Of a DNA stretch of 64,000 nt, positions 50,183-56,966 are shown one piece after another. The notes beneath the pieces were generated by a model. That model was not told the DNA's origin. It did not search any database and saw nothing but the letters and a program-made list of their open reading frames with translations. Both the position numbers and the translations under genes were made by a program. How positions within the stretch are numbered: the first letter of the stretch is position 1; each line of letters opens with the position of its first letter. The DNA is from Nitrosopumilus sp. Its GTDB lineage: Archaea > Thermoproteota > Nitrososphaeria > Nitrososphaerales > Nitrosopumilaceae. The stretch covers positions 1,248,001 to 1,312,000 of the forward strand of contig OY763927.2 in assembly GCA_963667665.2 (NCBI GenBank). The letters run 5' to 3'.

Positions 50183-52309
50183 TTATCTAACCTTTCGTAA
50201 TTCAGACTTTATGTTATCTGCAAGGGTTGAACCAATTTTATCTATTTCTGCTAATTTATTCACTGGAATTTTTGCCAAATCATCTAAATTCTTAATTCCA
50301 TGTTTGTAGAGAGTTCTGGCTCTAACCCTTCCAATTCCTTTGACTCTAACTAGTTCAAGCAATTCCTCTCGAATTCCATAAACAATTCTTTTTCTTAGAT
50401 TACCAAGTTCTTCAAGCAAATCAGCTCTTTTCACATGCTTGGAGATCTCTCTGAGGCAGTATGAAAGCCAATTTGCAGTCTCCGTCATCCTATGCATGTC
50501 TCCTGACTCAATTCCAAGGTTATCAGATAGTGACAATTCTGAAGATTCGGTAATCCAAGCCTGTAAGGCCAAAAGGCTTCTTGAGCAATCATATTCTGAA
50601 ATTTGTTCAAGCAATTCTGAAGAATTATTTTCTATCAAAAGACTGGCAGATTCATAATCCTTCTTTCGAAGTGAGAATTTTGGGAAAAATTCTTCACAGT
50701 TTGAGATCAAGTGCAAAAATCCAAATGTATGTTTTCTTTCTTGGGATACATTTTCAATAGCATCTCTAAAGTATGTTGCAGTTAAAGGATCAATATACAA
50801 CATTGATGTCTTTTTTCCAAATTCAGTAGCTGCATATCTTTCACCTTTTTTGATTATCAGATATTTGCTGGATAAAAAACGCAAAGAAATATCAATTGCA
50901 AATTTTATTGTAGGTTTTCTTGATTGTAAACCTCCTAATGTTTGTAAGAAAAATTCCAAGATCTCATCTTTTTTAATTCCAGGATGTGTAACTATAACAC
51001 TAAGTATGTGAGTTCGCAGAGATTTGTCATCAGTAATCTTTGAAATTATTGGTTCTGGTTCTCCATTAACATAATAATCAATCAAGTCCGCAGTATTTCC
51101 ATTTCCAACAATTATTGCTTCTCCATAATCATCATATTGTGGTCTTCCAGCTCTGCCACAGAGTTGTTTGTATTCTAAAATACTAATGGGTCTATTTGCC
51201 CCAACTTTTGCATTATACCGATTAACATTTGAAATTACAACTCTTCTTGCTGGAAGATTAACTCCAGCTGCTAAAGTTGGTGTGGATGACAATAACTTGA
51301 TAGTTCCTTTACGAAATTCTGTTTCTATTGTCTCTCTGCAATTTTGATTCAACCCTGCATGATGAAATGCAACTCCTTTTTTAACAAGAAATGCTAATGT
51401 CTTTATTAATTCTGTATGTTCATTTTGGGCTAGAATTTTTTTTGAGGTTTTTTCTAATTCCTTCAAATCTTTTTTTTCTAAAATTTGAGAGATGGCATCT
51501 GCTGCTTTTGTTGCAAGAGATTTTGAACGGTTTCTAGTCTCTGCAAATACTAAAGATTGACCTCCTTCTTTTACTGATTGTACGCCTAAATCAATAGGAG
51601 TTCCACGTATGCTACGCTCAACTGAAAAGGTTTTACCATCATTCATAGTAACTTCGCCTGCATCACATACTCCCTCTGTTAGAGGTACAGGTCTCCAGTC
51701 ATTTTTTACTAGCTTGCAATCAAGCCAATCTGCAATCTCATCAGAATTTGTAATAGTAGCACTAAGACCTACAATCTGAGGTTTTGTTTCTAGTAATTTT
51801 AGTTGTGTAAGAATCATCTCAAGTGTTGGACCTCGATTTTCATCTCCAATTAAATGGACTTCATCAGTAATTACTAGTCCAATTTCTTCAACCCATTCAG
51901 CACCATGCCTAATAATTGAATCCATTTTTTCATTTGTTAAAATTAAAACATTACTTTTCTCCAAATTCTTTTCAATATTTTCATAGTCTCCAGTTGATAT
52001 ACTGACTTTGACTTTATTTCCTATTGCAACTTTTTCTAATTTTTTAAATTCTGAGAATTTTTCAGCAGCCAATGCACGTAAAGGACTAAGATAAATCACC
52101 TTGCCGGTATTCTTTGAAAGATAACTAATTATTGCAAGCATTGCAATCAGGGTCTTTCCACTTGCAGTAGGAGCAGATACTAGAATACTTTTCCCATCTA
52201 GTAAGCCAGATTCAATACTATCAGCTTGTGGAGGATATAATTTTTCATAACCTTGTGATTTTAAAAATTCAATTGCAGAATCGGGAAGATCTAGTTTCTC
52301 TATTTTCAT
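50183..52309 (-). CDS. hel308: Hel308/Hjm Ski2-like DNA helicase
   Basis: LYPPQ, PTASGKT, DEVH, LSAT, FHHAGL, GVNLPAR, QLCGRAGRP and C-terminal HhH with RARTLY. Confidence 0.93.
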   Translation of the reverse strand: MKIEKLDLPDSAIEFLKSQGYEKLYPPQADSIESGLLDGKSILVSAPTASGKTLIAMLAIISYLSKNTGKVIYLSPLRALAAEKFSEFKKLEKVAIGNKVKVSISTGDYENIEKNLEKSNVLILTNEKMDSIIRHGAEWVEEIGLVITDEVHLIGDENRGPTLEMILTQLKLLETKPQIVGLSATITNSDEIADWLDCKLVKNDWRPVPLTEGVCDAGEVTMNDGKTFSVERSIRGTPIDLGVQSVKEGGQSLVFAETRNRSKSLATKAADAISQILEKKDLKELEKTSKKILAQNEHTELIKTLAFLVKKGVAFHHAGLNQNCRETIETEFRKGTIKLLSSTPTLAAGVNLPARRVVISNVNRYNAKVGANRPISILEYKQLCGRAGRPQYDDYGEAIIVGNGNTADLIDYYVNGEPEPIISKITDDKSLRTHILSVIVTHPGIKKDEILEFFLQTLGGLQSRKPTIKFAIDISLRFLSSKYLIIKKGERYAATEFGKKTSMLYIDPLTATYFRDAIENVSQERKHTFGFLHLISNCEEFFPKFSLRKKDYESASLLIENNSSELLEQISEYDCSRSLLALQAWITESSELSLSDNLGIESGDMHRMTETANWLSYCLREISKHVKRADLLEELGNLRKRIVYGIREELLELVRVKGIGRVRARTLYKHGIKNLDDLAKIPVNKLAEIDKIGSTLADNIKSELRKVR

Positions 52310-54393
52310 ACTCGGTTATAATGACCGGGTCTTGATTCATAAATAGATGCTTCTCTAAGCATTCTTCGGATATAGTTTCTTGCCTCATCTTCAGTGAATT
52401 TATCACTCTTTTCTAGTTCCCTGACAAACAACTTTTCTTCTACGGGTACCTTGTTATCACCTTCAAGGCCTCTGAGAACATCCATGAATAATTGCATCTT
52501 TGAAACCTCACTTCTTGGTTTTCCTTGTAATACTCCAAGATCTACTTTTCCAGTATTGACATCTACTCCTGCGTCCTCAAGCATACTCTGAAGCAAGAAG
52601 ATTGCACGCTCAGCATCTTCTAGTTCTACCTCGTTTTTCATGAGTAATCTTGCTCTTGCAGTAGAGAGTCTGATAATTCCCTCTAGTTGTCTTGGCGTAA
52701 CTGTAATCATCTCTTCGGATTCTACATTTCTCATCTGGAGATAGTATTCGAGGATCTTTTCTTCAGCATCTTTTGTCATTTTAGGAGTACCACGTTTTGC
52801 ATATGAGAGATATTTTGTTAGTAAATCAACATCAATTACAGAACGTTTGTCTGTTCCTTGTATAGAATGCAGTTCTATAATGTGTCTAGCAATTCTTTCA
52901 TCTTTTTCTTTACTTGGAATATCTCTTACAACAAAAATCAAGTCAAATCTTGTAAGCAATGGAATTGGCAAGTTTACATTTTCTGTAATATTTTTGAATG
53001 GATCATATTTTCCATACATTGGGTTTGCAGCAGCTAAAATTGATGTTCTAGCATTTAGTGTGGCGACAATACCACCTTTTGCAATACTGGCTGACTGTTG
53101 TTCCATGACTTCGTGTAAAGCACTTCTATCTTCTGGTTTCATCTTGTCAAATTCATCTATACATACAAGACCTTGGTCACCAAGCACTACTGCACCTGCT
53201 TCAAGCATCATGATTCCAGTTTTGTCTTTAACTATAGCAGCTGTAAGTCCTGCAGCAGTTGAACCTCTACCAGAAGTATACAAACCTCGTGGTGCAATCC
53301 TTGTACAAAACTTTAGCATCTCACTTTTTGCAGTACCAGGATCTCCAACTAGAAATACGTTAATGTCGCCTCTAATCTTGCTTCCATCACCCAATATTTT
53401 TTGATTAGCACCAACGATAAGTAACATAATAGCTTCTTTGATAACTGAATGTCCTTGAATATGAGGAGCAAATGAATCAATTAGTTTTTGATATACATCA
53501 GGACTTTTACTTAATGCTTTGATCATTTCTTCTTCTTCAGGTGAAACTTCGTCTTTTGCTATTTTACGAGACATTTTAGAACCATGCCCACCCAAAAATT
53601 CAATGTTATTTCCTTCAATTCTTAATCGGTATAATCCACTATGACCTCTCTGAACACCTGCAACAGATTCTTGTTCGATTCTTACTATACCTGTAAGAAT
53701 TATTCTGTCTCCAGGCCTTGCATTATCGACTAAATCCTGCCTAATTGTGACATCAATATAGTGAGGAAGTTGTCCTGGAGGTAGATCTTCAGGAAGTTCT
53801 TGTAATCTAAGAAGTTGAAAATCAATAAACTTGCTTGCTTCAGGTTTTATCTCAAAATCCCTGTGTTTACAAGATGGGTTATCACATACTACAGGAATTT
53901 TAACATCCATTCCTTTAAGCTGAATTACTTTGGTAGGATGATCATCTGGACAAACAAAGACTAGTTCTTTTGCAAGAGGTTTTACTTCTGATGCTCTAAC
54001 TACCATTCCTGAAACACTTGTAATTGTTCCAATAGTTTCAGCATTGATTTGTCTGAGACTTCTCTGAAGTGGATAATTTATTATTCTTACACGAACTTCA
54101 TCTTTTATTTTTTCAGCATAATCAGGAAATCTTGTTTGTAGTGCTTCTTTGATTGCTCTAGAAAACGCATCAAAGACTCTATCAGGACTTGTAGTAAATA
54201 AGATCTCAATTTCTGGTTCTACAACCAAATCATTGTAATCAACTACAATGTATTTTGCATTTTTAGGCATCATCTCATCGATTGCCTCTACATAGGTATA
54301 GTTACCAGATTTATTTTTGAATCTAGTCAGGAATTCTTTTACTCTATCTGACAATGCAGAATCTGTAAATGTACTAGTTTGAGTCTTGCTCAT
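52306..54393 (-). CDS. mcm: Replicative helicase MCM
   Basis: GDPGTAKSE, CIDEFDKM, AAANP, TRFDLIF and TPRQLE. Confidence 0.96.
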   Translation of the reverse strand: MSKTQTSTFTDSALSDRVKEFLTRFKNKSGNYTYVEAIDEMMPKNAKYIVVDYNDLVVEPEIEILFTTSPDRVFDAFSRAIKEALQTRFPDYAEKIKDEVRVRIINYPLQRSLRQINAETIGTITSVSGMVVRASEVKPLAKELVFVCPDDHPTKVIQLKGMDVKIPVVCDNPSCKHRDFEIKPEASKFIDFQLLRLQELPEDLPPGQLPHYIDVTIRQDLVDNARPGDRIILTGIVRIEQESVAGVQRGHSGLYRLRIEGNNIEFLGGHGSKMSRKIAKDEVSPEEEEMIKALSKSPDVYQKLIDSFAPHIQGHSVIKEAIMLLIVGANQKILGDGSKIRGDINVFLVGDPGTAKSEMLKFCTRIAPRGLYTSGRGSTAAGLTAAIVKDKTGIMMLEAGAVVLGDQGLVCIDEFDKMKPEDRSALHEVMEQQSASIAKGGIVATLNARTSILAAANPMYGKYDPFKNITENVNLPIPLLTRFDLIFVVRDIPSKEKDERIARHIIELHSIQGTDKRSVIDVDLLTKYLSYAKRGTPKMTKDAEEKILEYYLQMRNVESEEMITVTPRQLEGIIRLSTARARLLMKNEVELEDAERAIFLLQSMLEDAGVDVNTGKVDLGVLQGKPRSEVSKMQLFMDVLRGLEGDNKVPVEEKLFVRELEKSDKFTEDEARNYIRRMLREASIYESRPGHYNRV

Positions 54394-54904
54394 TTAGATC
54401 TCCTCTTATTTGTTTTTCAAACTCTACACTGTTATCATGGATTGTTTTATAGAATGCACTTTCTTCAACAGTTAATTTGTTGTAGAGTTCAGAATTTAGT
54501 TTGATAGAGTCTGCTATCTTTACTAGTTTACCTCTTCTCATTCTAAATAACTCTAACATCATACTTTCAACTTTATCAAAATCGTTATGATTCAATTCTT
54601 TCATAGATTCTTTTAGTTTAATGTAAAAATGAGAGTCTAGTGTAGAGATTTGATATTCTCCAACCATCTTTTCTTTTGATAATGCTTGTTTTAGTTCAGT
54701 AATCATATCTGGAGAATCAAGTGTTGTCAATTTATTATCAGATAGTATTTTTCCAATCCACTGAGGCATGTTAATTATCTCCCCTGTAGTTCCCTCGGTT
54801 TTTATTCCTGCAACATTAAATTTGAAATCGCGATTAACTGTAACCTTAGCATCCTTTAGGCGGTGTCCAACCGAATGCACTTTTTCTATTTTATCTATTT
54901 CCAT
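54374..54904 (-). CDS. GINS complex subunit (Gins23/Psf2 type)
   Basis: N-terminal B-domain with MPQW, then helical HFY...RRGKL...LTVEE; directly upstream of mcm. Confidence 0.8.
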   Translation of the reverse strand: MEIDKIEKVHSVGHRLKDAKVTVNRDFKFNVAGIKTEGTTGEIINMPQWIGKILSDNKLTTLDSPDMITELKQALSKEKMVGEYQISTLDSHFYIKLKESMKELNHNDFDKVESMMLELFRMRRGKLVKIADSIKLNSELYNKLTVEESAFYKTIHDNSVEFEKQIRGDLNEQDSN

Positions 54905-54909
54905 ATCGA

Positions 54910-55004
54910 GATCTTGATCCGCCTGAAGATCTTCAAGTCAGGATCCGTCAATTGATCTGATCAAACAGCTCAATAGAATTGATCCAAGCGATCTCAGGCT
55001 GATC
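54910..55004. promoter_or_regulatory. Dense GATC cluster (9 sites) in the gins/rfcS divergent intergenic region
   Basis: GATC at 54910, 54916, 54928, 54942, 54954, 54959, 54981, 54990 and 55001; non-coding (in-frame TGA 12 codons upstream of the gins ATG). Confidence 0.7.
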
Positions 55005-55095
55005 GCATAGAAAATACAACTAATTTTGATTTTAATTTGTAGTATGTCATAATAACCAATTCGGATTTATTAATGGGAATTGAACCTAAAGTTTT

Positions 55096-56046
55096 ATGTC
55101 TGCAACAGGAATGTGGGTAGAAAAATATCGACCAACAAAACTTTCAGAAATTGTAAACCAGACAGAAATTATTGGAAGTTTAGAAGCTCTAATCAAAGAT
55201 CCCACTGATATGCCACACTTGATGTTTTCTGGTTCTGCAGGAGTAGGCAAAACCACTACTGCATTATGTCTTTCAAGACAAATTTTAGGGGAATATGCCA
55301 AAGACCACACTCTTGAGTTAAACGCATCAGATGAACGAGGAATTGAAATGGTTAGACAAAAAGTAAAGAAATTTTCAAGATTTGCCGGAATGGTAGATGT
55401 TCCATTTAAAATTATTATTTTAGATGAAGCAGATGAAATGACCTCAGCTGCTCAAACTGCACTTAGAAGAATTATAGAAGATACCGCAAAAATTTGTAGA
55501 TTTATTTTAATTGCAAATAATATTTCAAAAATTATAGAACCTATTCAAAGCAGATGTGCAACTTTCAAGTTTACAACAGTTTCTGAAGAAGATGTCATTG
55601 CCAGACTAGAAGAGATTGCCAAAAAAGAGAAAGTAAAGACTGACAAAAAGGGTCTAAAGGAAATTTATGAATATACAGAAGGAGATTTGAGACATGCAAT
55701 TAATTTAATGCAAGCAACTGCAAGTCTTGGTGGAATCACTGAAGAGAATGTAAAGGCATCAGCTGGATTATCAAAAACCAGTGATGTTGATGAAGTCCTA
55801 AAAATTGCACTAGCCGGAAAAGTTGTCGAAGCAAGAGAGAAGATGATAGAATTAATCAAAGTTTATGGAATGTCAGAATCTGATTTCCTAAAGTATTTCA
55901 ATTCAGCTGTATTCAAATCAAAACATACCAATTTGTCAGATATTTTACAAGTAATTGCAAAGTATGATTATAGAATACTAGTTGGAGCAAATTCTGAAAT
56001 TCAGTTATCTGCAATGCTTGCAGAACTTGCAAAATTAGAAAAGTAA
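55096..56046 (+). CDS. rfcS: Replication factor C small subunit
   Basis: WVEKYRP, GSAGVGKTT, ELNASDERG, ILDEAD, QSRC and GDLRHAIN. Confidence 0.96.
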   Translation: MSATGMWVEKYRPTKLSEIVNQTEIIGSLEALIKDPTDMPHLMFSGSAGVGKTTTALCLSRQILGEYAKDHTLELNASDERGIEMVRQKVKKFSRFAGMVDVPFKIIILDEADEMTSAAQTALRRIIEDTAKICRFILIANNISKIIEPIQSRCATFKFTTVSEEDVIARLEEIAKKEKVKTDKKGLKEIYEYTEGDLRHAINLMQATASLGGITEENVKASAGLSKTSDVDEVLKIALAGKVVEAREKMIELIKVYGMSESDFLKYFNSAVFKSKHTNLSDILQVIAKYDYRILVGANSEIQLSAMLAELAKLEK

Positions 56047-56054
56047 TTCAAGAA

Positions 56055-56966
56055 TTAAGCATCTAGAGATTTTAGATTTTTACATCTGTTTCTTATAGTA
56101 ACTTCAGTTACGCCTGCAGCCAAGGCAATTGTTTTTTGGGTTGTATTCTCGCCAGTCTCCATACTTGCAATATACAAAGCAGATGCTGCCATTCCCATAG
56201 GATCTTTTCCAGATACAATTTGATGTTGTTCAGCTTTTTTGAGAAGCTTCATTGCATGACGTTTAGTTTTTTCAGATAGACCTATCTGACTTGCAATTCG
56301 TGAAATACATGAAACTGAATCAACTACCGGCATCTTCAAATCTAATTCTTTTACTACCATTCTATAACAAATAGCGAGATTTTTTCTCGTAATGTTAATT
56401 GAACTTGAAACATCATTAAGAGTTCTTGGAGTACCAGTTTCACGACAAGCAGCATAGAGTGTTGCAGCAATTAATGCAGAAATTGATCTACCCCTAACAA
56501 GTTTCTTTTCAAGAGCTTTTCTGTAAATGTAAGCTGCTTTTTCTACAATAGGATCAGATAAAGATAATTTCTCTTTCATTTTGAGTAATTCACTTAGTGC
56601 ATGTTGAAGATTTCTATCAGCAGAATCTTTAGTACGACTTCGGCTATCCCAAATACGTAATCGCTTAATTGAGGATTTCATGGATGAAGATAACGGATTT
56701 CCAGAAGAGTCTTTGTTCATTGGGCTAATTATTGTACTAAGACCTTGATCATGTCTTGTTAGTGATGTTCTATCTCCAGTTCTTGATTTGTTGGTACCAC
56801 TATCTGAGAATGTTCTTTCTGGTCCTTGATTGTCTATTCTGCCAGTAATTACAAAACCACACTTGCCACAAAACATTTCACCTGTTTCATCATCAGTAAT
56901 TATTTTGCTTTTTCCACATCTAGGACAGCCTTGTTTTTTTGATAGTTGTTGATTTTGTTGTGCCAT
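56055..56966 (-). CDS. tfb: Transcription initiation factor IIB paralog
   Basis: Zn ribbon CPRC...CGKCG, HDQGLST, ADRNL, VRGRSI, GKDPMG and GVTEVTIRNR. Confidence 0.94.
   Translation of the reverse strand: MAQQNQQLSKKQGCPRCGKSKIITDDETGEMFCGKCGFVITGRIDNQGPERTFSDSGTNKSRTGDRTSLTRHDQGLSTIISPMNKDSSGNPLSSSMKSSIKRLRIWDSRSRTKDSADRNLQHALSELLKMKEKLSLSDPIVEKAAYIYRKALEKKLVRGRSISALIAATLYAACRETGTPRTLNDVSSSINITRKNLAICYRMVVKELDLKMPVVDSVSCISRIASQIGLSEKTKRHAMKLLKKAEQHQIVSGKDPMGMAASALYIASMETGENTTQKTIALAAGVTEVTIRNRCKNLKSLDA

Follow-up and report, generated by a model that had tools for sequence, protein, structure and literature searches.

The window analysed here is a 64-kb stretch of DNA (G000:C1:1248001-1312000) from a Nitrosopumilus genome of 1,884,960 bp that is 99.97% complete. 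At positions 54905-55095, a spacer separates two divergent sets of genes encoding replisome components. On the minus strand, gins (54374..54904), which encodes a protein with an Sld5 domain (Pfam PF05916), is the first gene of a gins-mcm-helicase group and is followed by mcm (52306..54393; Pfam MCM, MCM_OB, MCM_lid and MCM_N) and by a gene for a Hel308-like helicase (50183..52309; Pfam DEAD, Helicase_C, Helicase_dom4_arc and HHH_5). On the plus strand lies rfcS (55096..56046; Pfam AAA, Rep_fac_C and RFC lid), which encodes the clamp loader small subunit. The identities given to these genes (GINS/Sld5, MCM, Hel308-like helicase and RfcS) by a previous reading of the window from its sequence alone, hereafter the sequence-only reading, are thus borne out by Pfam. 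Directly 3' of rfcS and convergent with it, a TFB (TFIIB) paralogue is encoded on the minus strand (window positions 56055-56966). This gene was rejected as a conserved neighbour of the locus, which it adjoins in only 10 of 80 related loci.

The part of the gins/rfcS spacer which is rich in GATC (54905..55010, to which no strand is assigned) contains nine GATC sites, located at 54910, 54916, 54928, 54942, 54954, 54959, 54981, 54990 and 55001, along with one AGCT at 54967. Neighbouring GATC sites are 5-22 bp apart. With 44% G+C, while the remainder of the spacer has 22% and the window as a whole 34%, this region is indeed the locally GC-richer stretch that had been noticed. It is not an N-terminal extension of GINS either, since the in-frame TGA located 12 codons 5' of the gins ATG was found again; the gins open frame comprises 187 aa, versus 176 aa for the protein. 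A small open reading frame within the spacer was also considered and rejected, as the frames present are spurious (at most 30 aa), none of them is conserved and relatives have stops in all frames.

In the whole genome, GATC occurs 5,799 times, i.e., 3.08 per kb. On this basis, 0.29 sites are predicted per 95 bp versus the nine observed (Poisson P(>=9) = 3.3e-11), and multiplying this value by all genome positions still gives 6e-5. The approximately 30-fold enrichment put forward by the sequence-only reading is therefore real, as is the lack of any comparable cluster in the 64-kb window, where every other 95-bp stretch holds at most three GATC. Extending the density check to the genome, all other stretches with at least six GATC per 100 bp proved to be simple tandem repeats. 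These are a 12-mer repeated 20 times (C1:11494-11722) and a repeat with a 15-base unit (C1:307258-307405), both located inside coding sequence according to a crude ORF call, and a 9-mer repeated six times (C1:907715-907760). The gins/rfcS spacer is thus the sole dense GATC cluster of this 1.9-Mb genome which is not a tandem repeat. Genome-wide, none of the other 15 palindromic tetramers falls as far below expectation as GATC (observed/expected 0.69), and the GATC count in the window, 183, is below the shuffle expectation of 245 +/- 14.

Elsewhere in the genome, non-coding mini-clusters of four to five GATC have sequences unrelated to the cluster under study, with one exception. At C1:1653819-1653900 (locus L122, about 2320-2400), five GATC are found together with an 11-mer, GATCTGATCAA, common to both places. 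This mini-cluster lies upstream of L122:2465-4618, which encodes a 717-aa protein with HTH_20, ATP-cone and partial NRDD (anaerobic ribonucleotide reductase) domains. Paired GATC doublets of the form TGGTGATC(N1-2)GATCACC were also observed at two non-coding places, C1:567764-567893 and C1:590237-590332. With a spacing of ~46 bp and ACCAG/CTGG words, they look like a different repeated operator.

The cluster is shared by close relatives. A search with the GINS protein yielded 80 named records, of which 78 also included rfcS in the retrieved segment, and 77 of these 78 Nitrosopumilus/Nitrosarchaeum spacers hold 5-10 GATC (2, 5, 6, 7, 8, 9 and 10 GATC in 1, 1, 16, 46, 10, 1 and 3 loci, respectively). 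Nitrosarchaeum spacers are just 125 bp long, yet they carry six to seven GATC. Presence in orthologous spacers, on which the functional proposal of the sequence-only reading hinged, was found in all 19 loci of the genus with an alignable spacer of ~190 bp, where 5-7 GATC occupy conserved positions. In two divergent loci of the same genus, with G+C-rich spacers, zero and four GATC are present, and two loci from other families have none in the spacer.

Comparison of these spacers revealed a conserved core of ~42 bp, GATCGATCAATT-CTGTTAAC-N10-GATCAWTTGATC, in which two palindromic GATC doublets are placed on either side of a TGTTAACA dyad. The palindromes within this core are GATCGATC, TGTTAACA and GATCAATTGATC. 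The strict core is found in 68 of the 78 spacers mentioned above. When the pattern GATCGATC-N22-GATCAWTTGATC was searched with at most one mismatch, it was retrieved from 114 of 151 Nitrosopumilaceae genomes and from 19 of 25 genera (111/148 genomes without three unpublished ones), with no match for the reversed control. Among the 151 genomes, it is nearly always single-copy and located at the gins locus. In addition, 60 spacer regions covering the 25 genera were fetched, rfcS being adjacent in 55 of them. An ungapped alignment of 21 genus representatives gave the consensus GGATCGATCAATTCTGTTAACAATTTGGTTAGATCATTTGATCC, with at least 90% identity at GATCGATCAATT, at GATCA.TTGATC and at the TT and AC of the dyad. 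Across these 21 genera, the core positions outside GATC (AATT, TT.AC) are as strongly conserved as the GATCs themselves. Mapping on an RfcS tree, midpoint-rooted for drawing only, places the element nearly throughout the family, the two deepest genera being without it, with secondary decay in genus g21 and, partially, in g18, g29 and g31. Genera counted as lacking the element include g21, g23, g24, g28 and g33.

GATC is enriched beyond this core. Among 23 genus representatives, it outnumbers every other palindromic tetramer (119 occurrences in 3,727 nt, versus 67 for AATT) and still does so outside the strict core (59 in 3,157 nt). Although the flanks of different genera are not alignable, zero to five additional, independent GATCs are found in them, often within a few bases of the gins or rfcS start. 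Given the genome-wide avoidance of this tetramer, these counts argue that GATC has a role of its own.

The position of the core relative to the promoters is best seen in genera with short spacers (g22, g25, g35, g38 and g40), in which it lies exactly between two divergent TATA-like boxes. The box facing gins, ATTAAAT (gins strand), precedes the gins start by ~29 nt and is separated from GATCGATC by 2-7 nt; the one facing rfcS, TTTATTA, precedes the rfcS ATG by ~30 nt, with ~10 nt between it and GATC(C/T). We take both to be TATA boxes, following the archaeal TATA consensus. With these assignments, the core fills, in most genera, the whole space between the two predicted outward-facing core promoters, both BRE positions included. 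The GATC sites are embedded in a longer palindromic sequence which is conserved in 21 genera and located, in most genera, between the predicted TATA boxes.

This geometry could be that of a special core promoter, in which the GATC doublets, abutting both TATA boxes at the places of BREs, would be unusual BREs read by a dedicated TFB paralogue. Such a paralogue is encoded directly after rfcS in this genome, and in Sulfolobus, TFB2 is reported to drive a cell-cycle wave which includes Gins23 (bioRxiv 10.64898/2026.09.06.749720). We nevertheless regard this explanation as improbable: the TFB gene is a neighbour in few of the related loci, as stated above, the length of 42 bp, the internal dyad and the palindromes all exceed what a BRE requires, and inversion of the core, described below, is tolerated.

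On the rfcS side of the present spacer, the core promoter block AATAACCAATTCGGATTTATTAATGGG (55051..55077, plus strand) is invariant or nearly so in 20 spacers and recognisable family-wide. Its TATA box, TTTATTAA (55066-55073), assigned by the archaeal consensus, is located 30 nt before the ATG and therefore implies a leaderless mRNA. Towards gins, an insertion of ~65 bp is present in Nitrosopumilus and three other genera; it contains a conserved AT-rich box, TTTTGATTTTAA, which reads TTAAAATCAAAA on the gins strand. In the window, this box occupies 55024..55035 (minus strand), ~125 nt upstream of gins, and it is nearly invariant in 20 spacers of the same genus. Because no TATA-like sequence is present around -27 of gins in this genome, the box is a candidate for a relocated gins TATA box in the long-spacer genera. 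As no gins TATA box adjoining the core could be placed in this genome or in the long-spacer genera, the core may be transcribed there.

The core is also rearranged in the clade of the window. A profile built from 73 distinct cores gave as best genome-wide hit C1:1302948-1302984 on the minus strand (E 0.005), while no other locus of the genome was significant. This hit corresponds to an inverted copy of the family core at 54948..54984 of the window, in which the GTTAAC dyad has degenerated. The sequence GTCAACAGAATTGATC, which is the reverse complement of GATCAATTCTGTTGAC, is found in the clade relatives L047 and L178. The clade has gained extra GATCs, reaching 8-10. The ninth GATC of the window belongs to a distal block, TCAGGCTGATCGC (54994..55006, without assigned strand), which is largely conserved in 20 spacers of the same genus; its GATC is kept in 15 of these aligned spacers and absent in five. 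In our opinion, the nine GATCs probably represent a local, rearranged and GATC-enriched form of an ancient control element of the family.

A transcribed core would be compatible with an RNA element, either the 5' leader of the gins-mcm mRNA or a small RNA, acting via its structure or a trans-acting factor. In the long-spacer genera, the lack of a TATA-like box ~27 nt before gins and the presence of TTAAAATCAAAA far upstream go in this direction. Furthermore, the predicted fold of the plus strand is slightly more stable than those of shuffled sequences (z -2.5; -1.7 for the minus strand, which argues against such an element), and a metatranscriptome contig from a relative extends beyond the gins ATG by 153 nt, into the spacer. 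The latter is a weak hint, as such contigs show neither strand nor ends and DNA carry-over is possible. The RNA data consist of assembled contigs; those from a run of the same strain cover gins at 54645-54894 and rfcS at 55122-55357, and the fact that they do not cover the spacer proves nothing. Searches of the spacer against Rfam gave no match at E<=10. The consensus fold is weak (-10.9 kcal/mol, with no covariation term), its pairs reflect only the self-complementarity of GATC, and compensatory changes affect two of 15 predicted pairs, each in a single sequence. In most genera, the core is placed between outward-facing TATA boxes and hence would not be transcribed from them. In the clade of the window, inversion of the core would have swapped the RNA for its complement. 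Because the core was inverted and yet retained, and because neither covariation nor an Rfam hit was obtained, the element is better understood as a DNA element, and we consider an RNA function very unlikely.

The proposal of the sequence-only reading was conditional on methylation of GATC in this organism, and it pointed to an orphan methyltransferase as the enzyme to look for. The genome encodes an orphan Dam, a D12-class methyltransferase (PF02086, 218 bits; C1:1778176-1778928, locus L031 1450-2310), directly downstream of amoA. Its FxGxG (FLGGG) and DPPY motifs are intact, no endonuclease was seen beside the gene and no DpnII-type endonuclease was found in this genome. We infer its GATC specificity from relatives (PMC6329791, PMC11033074). 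Methylation of GATC, the premise of the proposal, is in agreement with the published m6A levels of at least 98% in two members of the family. Of 9,618 GATC sites, 9,446 carry m6A in Nitrosarchaeum BD3, which has an orphan methyltransferase (PMC6329791). For Ca. Nitrosomarinus catalina, a review puts GATC methylation at more than 99% and also designates Nmar_1319 as a GATC methyltransferase (PMC11033074). GATC methylation has also been reported through archaeal marine MAGs (PMC8919816). The BD3 record itself possesses the element, with seven GATC (L117). Dam (PF02086) is found in 149 of the 151 family genomes and in all 25 genera; its co-occurrence with the element is hence uninformative. In one genome (G089), a diverged second copy of the core is located ~135 nt upstream of dam, between amoA and dam. 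The amoA-dam gene order of the present genome is also that of G089.

The location of the cluster was compared with that of the replication origin. The orc1/cdc6 gene (C1:1536111-1537313) is 235 kb from the cluster. An ORB-like 13-mer, TTTCCACTCCAGG, has two copies in the genome, both beside orc1/cdc6 at C1:1.5376 Mb and none at the cluster. The cumulative GC skew shows a turn near 0.53 Mb and a plateau at 1.5-1.75 Mb, with no turn at 1.30 Mb. A single replication origin has been reported for N. maritimus (PMC4010727). The cluster was thus rejected as a replication origin, the ORB repeats, the adjacency to orc1/cdc6 and the skew switch all being elsewhere. A broader proposal is that of a chromosomal site not involved in transcription, such as a second origin, an MCM loading site or a partition or centromere-like site. 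It is in line with an element which is unique, single-copy, palindrome-rich and next to mcm. Against it stand the ORB, skew and single-origin observations, to which can be added the lack of an AT-rich unwinding stretch inside the 44% G+C cluster, and it appears to us the least probable of the explanations considered, with hardly any likelihood of being correct.

The origin has no GATC array, the nearest GATCs being three sites in the promoter of a neighbouring gene. In 14 single-contig genomes bearing the element, which belong to six genera, the distance from the gins locus to the origin marker is 195-314 kb, i.e., 0.20-0.39 replichore, whereas it ranges from 98 to 812 kb in 10 genomes without an intact element. 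This constant distance may reflect just conserved gene order.

Two lineages are informative regarding the role of the GATCs. In the Nitrosopumilus locus L053, the backbone of the element is kept and five of seven GATCs have been lost by single substitutions. Loss of Dam was considered as the cause of this decay and rejected, as Dam is intact in the L053 genome, with DPPY present. Similarly, genus g21 keeps the backbone with only one of the four core GATCs, and Dam hits are present. These GATCs are therefore dispensable in some lineages, which weakens the methylation part of any explanation.

SeqA binds paired GATC sites, and distances of 5-22 bp fall within its spacing range. The cluster could be a pure Dam/SeqA-like timer, in which GATC density alone would carry the information and, once the fork has passed, an archaeal reader of hemimethylated GATC would sequester both promoters until Dam remethylates them. 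The near-universal orphan Dam, the near-complete GATC methylation in relatives (PMC6329791, PMC11033074), the similar origin distance in complete genomes and the GATC enrichment outside the core, with its turnover between genera and its gains in the clade of the window, would all suit such a timer. No match to SeqA (PF03925) or MutH (PF02976) was obtained in this 99.97% complete genome, while the controls matched in E. coli. Moreover, conservation of the core is just as strong outside the GATCs, the backbone persists in L053 and g21 with most GATCs gone although Dam is present, and the origin is devoid of a GATC array. A SeqA-like array with GATC as its sole information is thus a poor fit and, as an explanation of the locus, unlikely. 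The methylation switch envisaged by the sequence-only reading is upheld in part: none of the three observations which it named as refuting was made, as a Dam-class enzyme is present, the cluster occurs in relatives and the genome has no other comparable non-repeat cluster, whereas its SeqA-like formulation fits poorly.

As in the E. coli Dam/SeqA system (oriC and the dnaA promoter), a dense GATC cluster is found in a regulatory region of replication functions, the Dam-class methyltransferase is an orphan and, judging from relatives, nearly all GATC sites are methylated. In contrast to E. coli, no SeqA was found, the site is distant from the origin and from the promoter of the initiator gene (235 kb), the lineage is archaeal with TBP/TFB promoters, and conserved non-GATC sequence and palindromes indicate a sequence-specific binder.

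Collectively, these data establish a cis-element on replisome promoters which is real, statistically extreme and deeply conserved. Since non-GATC positions are conserved and two lineages keep the backbone without the GATCs, its best reading is that of a protein operator. As a whole, we favor an ancient DNA-level control element, probably an operator at the gins-mcm-helicase and rfcS promoters. Judging from its anatomy and conservation, the core would be bound by a dimeric sequence-specific DNA-binding protein, for which there is at present a candidate only, and this protein would control TBP/TFB recruitment at both replisome promoters at once. Every GATC of the core and the extra flanking ones would be Dam substrates; their state (un-, hemi- or fully methylated) may therefore influence how far the element is occupied, or how strong the promoters are. 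Replication forks would pass the element about a quarter of a replichore from oriC. That methylation-dependent occupancy ties expression of the replisome genes to fork passage is conceivable, although we would not go so far as to call it probable.

Several known systems can be compared with such an operator. The closest match to the finding that GATCs and flanks are both conserved is provided by the OxyR (agn43) and Lrp (pap) operators of enterobacteria, in which GATCs are located inside regulator binding sites and methylation competes with binding; in the present case, binding is only predicted. Those operators are phase-variation switches of surface genes with two to three GATCs, whereas four invariant and two to five variable GATCs are found here, at essential replisome genes and with family-wide conservation. 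In Caulobacter, the CcrM/GcrA system acts on ctrA and dnaA: methylation sites in promoters change state at fork passage, and chromosomal position sets the timing. The gins locus likewise keeps a similar origin distance in 14 complete genomes, which may be synteny. The two cases differ in the site (GATC here, GANTC in Caulobacter) and in the class of methyltransferase, and no GcrA-like factor is known here. The bacterial SeqA and CcrM/GcrA models have been summarised elsewhere (PMC13076061). Among archaea, the closest parallel is the control of cyclic genes by TFB2 and aCcr1 in Sulfolobus, where cis-elements at the promoters of cell-cycle and replication genes are reported to be bound by a small repressor (aCcr1) or by a TFB paralogue (bioRxiv 10.64898/2026.09.06.749720). 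The phylum and the motif differ, and methylation is not part of the Sulfolobus system.

A candidate for the operator-binding protein is encoded beside the ORB repeats and orc1/cdc6, outside the window (C1:1537806-1538192; locus L191 1807-2193). This 128-aa protein is present in 148 of the 151 family genomes, with 46-89% identity. It has no Pfam domain above the cut-off and is called hypothetical in the sources. The promoter of its gene is conserved family-wide and contains three GTTAAC and three GATC, the three GTTAAC being the sole GTTAAC cluster of the genome. The words GATCAATT..CTGTTAACA and TTAGATCCTCA are common to this promoter and to the gins/rfcS element. By profile search, the likeness to the core is weak (E 3.7 and 5.8), and the resemblance rests on reading these shared words. 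The GATCs of this promoter are absent in g21, g23, g24 and g33, which are four of the six genera lacking the core pattern at gins/rfcS.

An AlphaFold model of the 128-aa protein, computed with 60 homologues (pLDDT 86), predicts an N-terminal beta-hairpin and helix followed by a C-terminal winged helix. With Foldseek, the winged helix matched DNA-binding domains of MarR, MecI, BlaI, Fur and ArsR, as well as a RosR domain (probability ~1.0, E ~0.01, 2-3 A over 63-75 columns). On the basis of this model, the protein is a candidate regulator of the element, its own promoter possibly bearing a related GATC/GTTAAC composite. Its distribution does not single it out, because it is also present in genera without the element. 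In the most complete version of this scheme, the oriC-adjacent protein would read the methylation state of the four core GATCs and their satellites between gins and rfcS, and fork passage at ~0.2-0.4 replichore would reset helicase and clamp-loader expression once per cycle. We propose this version as a speculation, with a rather low chance of proving right.

If true, archaea would have a first example of an epigenetic switch coupled to replication, and the orphan Dam found almost universally in ammonia-oxidising archaea would have a function. The control of the ordered cell cycle of TACK archaea is described as unclear in a 2024 review in which the word methylation does not occur (PMC7617429), and no published description of the element was found in full-text literature searches. 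Being short, single-copy, deeply conserved, largely composed of Dam sites and located at the MCM/GINS and clamp-loader promoters, the element offers a testable handle on the order of the Thaumarchaeota cell cycle and on the role of archaeal orphan Dam enzymes, in globally abundant nitrifiers.

Besides the gins locus, extra copies of the core, some of them with gins-side flank, are found before genes without Pfam match in four other genomes (L185, at G156:C21:363800-366900; L184; L186; L187). One extra copy is near a transposase-like ORF, recognised as such by reading its sequence and without a Pfam hit, and for this reason the element may travel with mobile DNA. Finally, the present genome contains an N6_N4 methyltransferase pair in two identical-scoring copies, C1:1815449-1817175 (minus strand) and C1:1868341-1870067 (plus strand), which are inverted and ~51 kb apart, a layout suggestive of either a large inverted duplication or a mobile element present twice.
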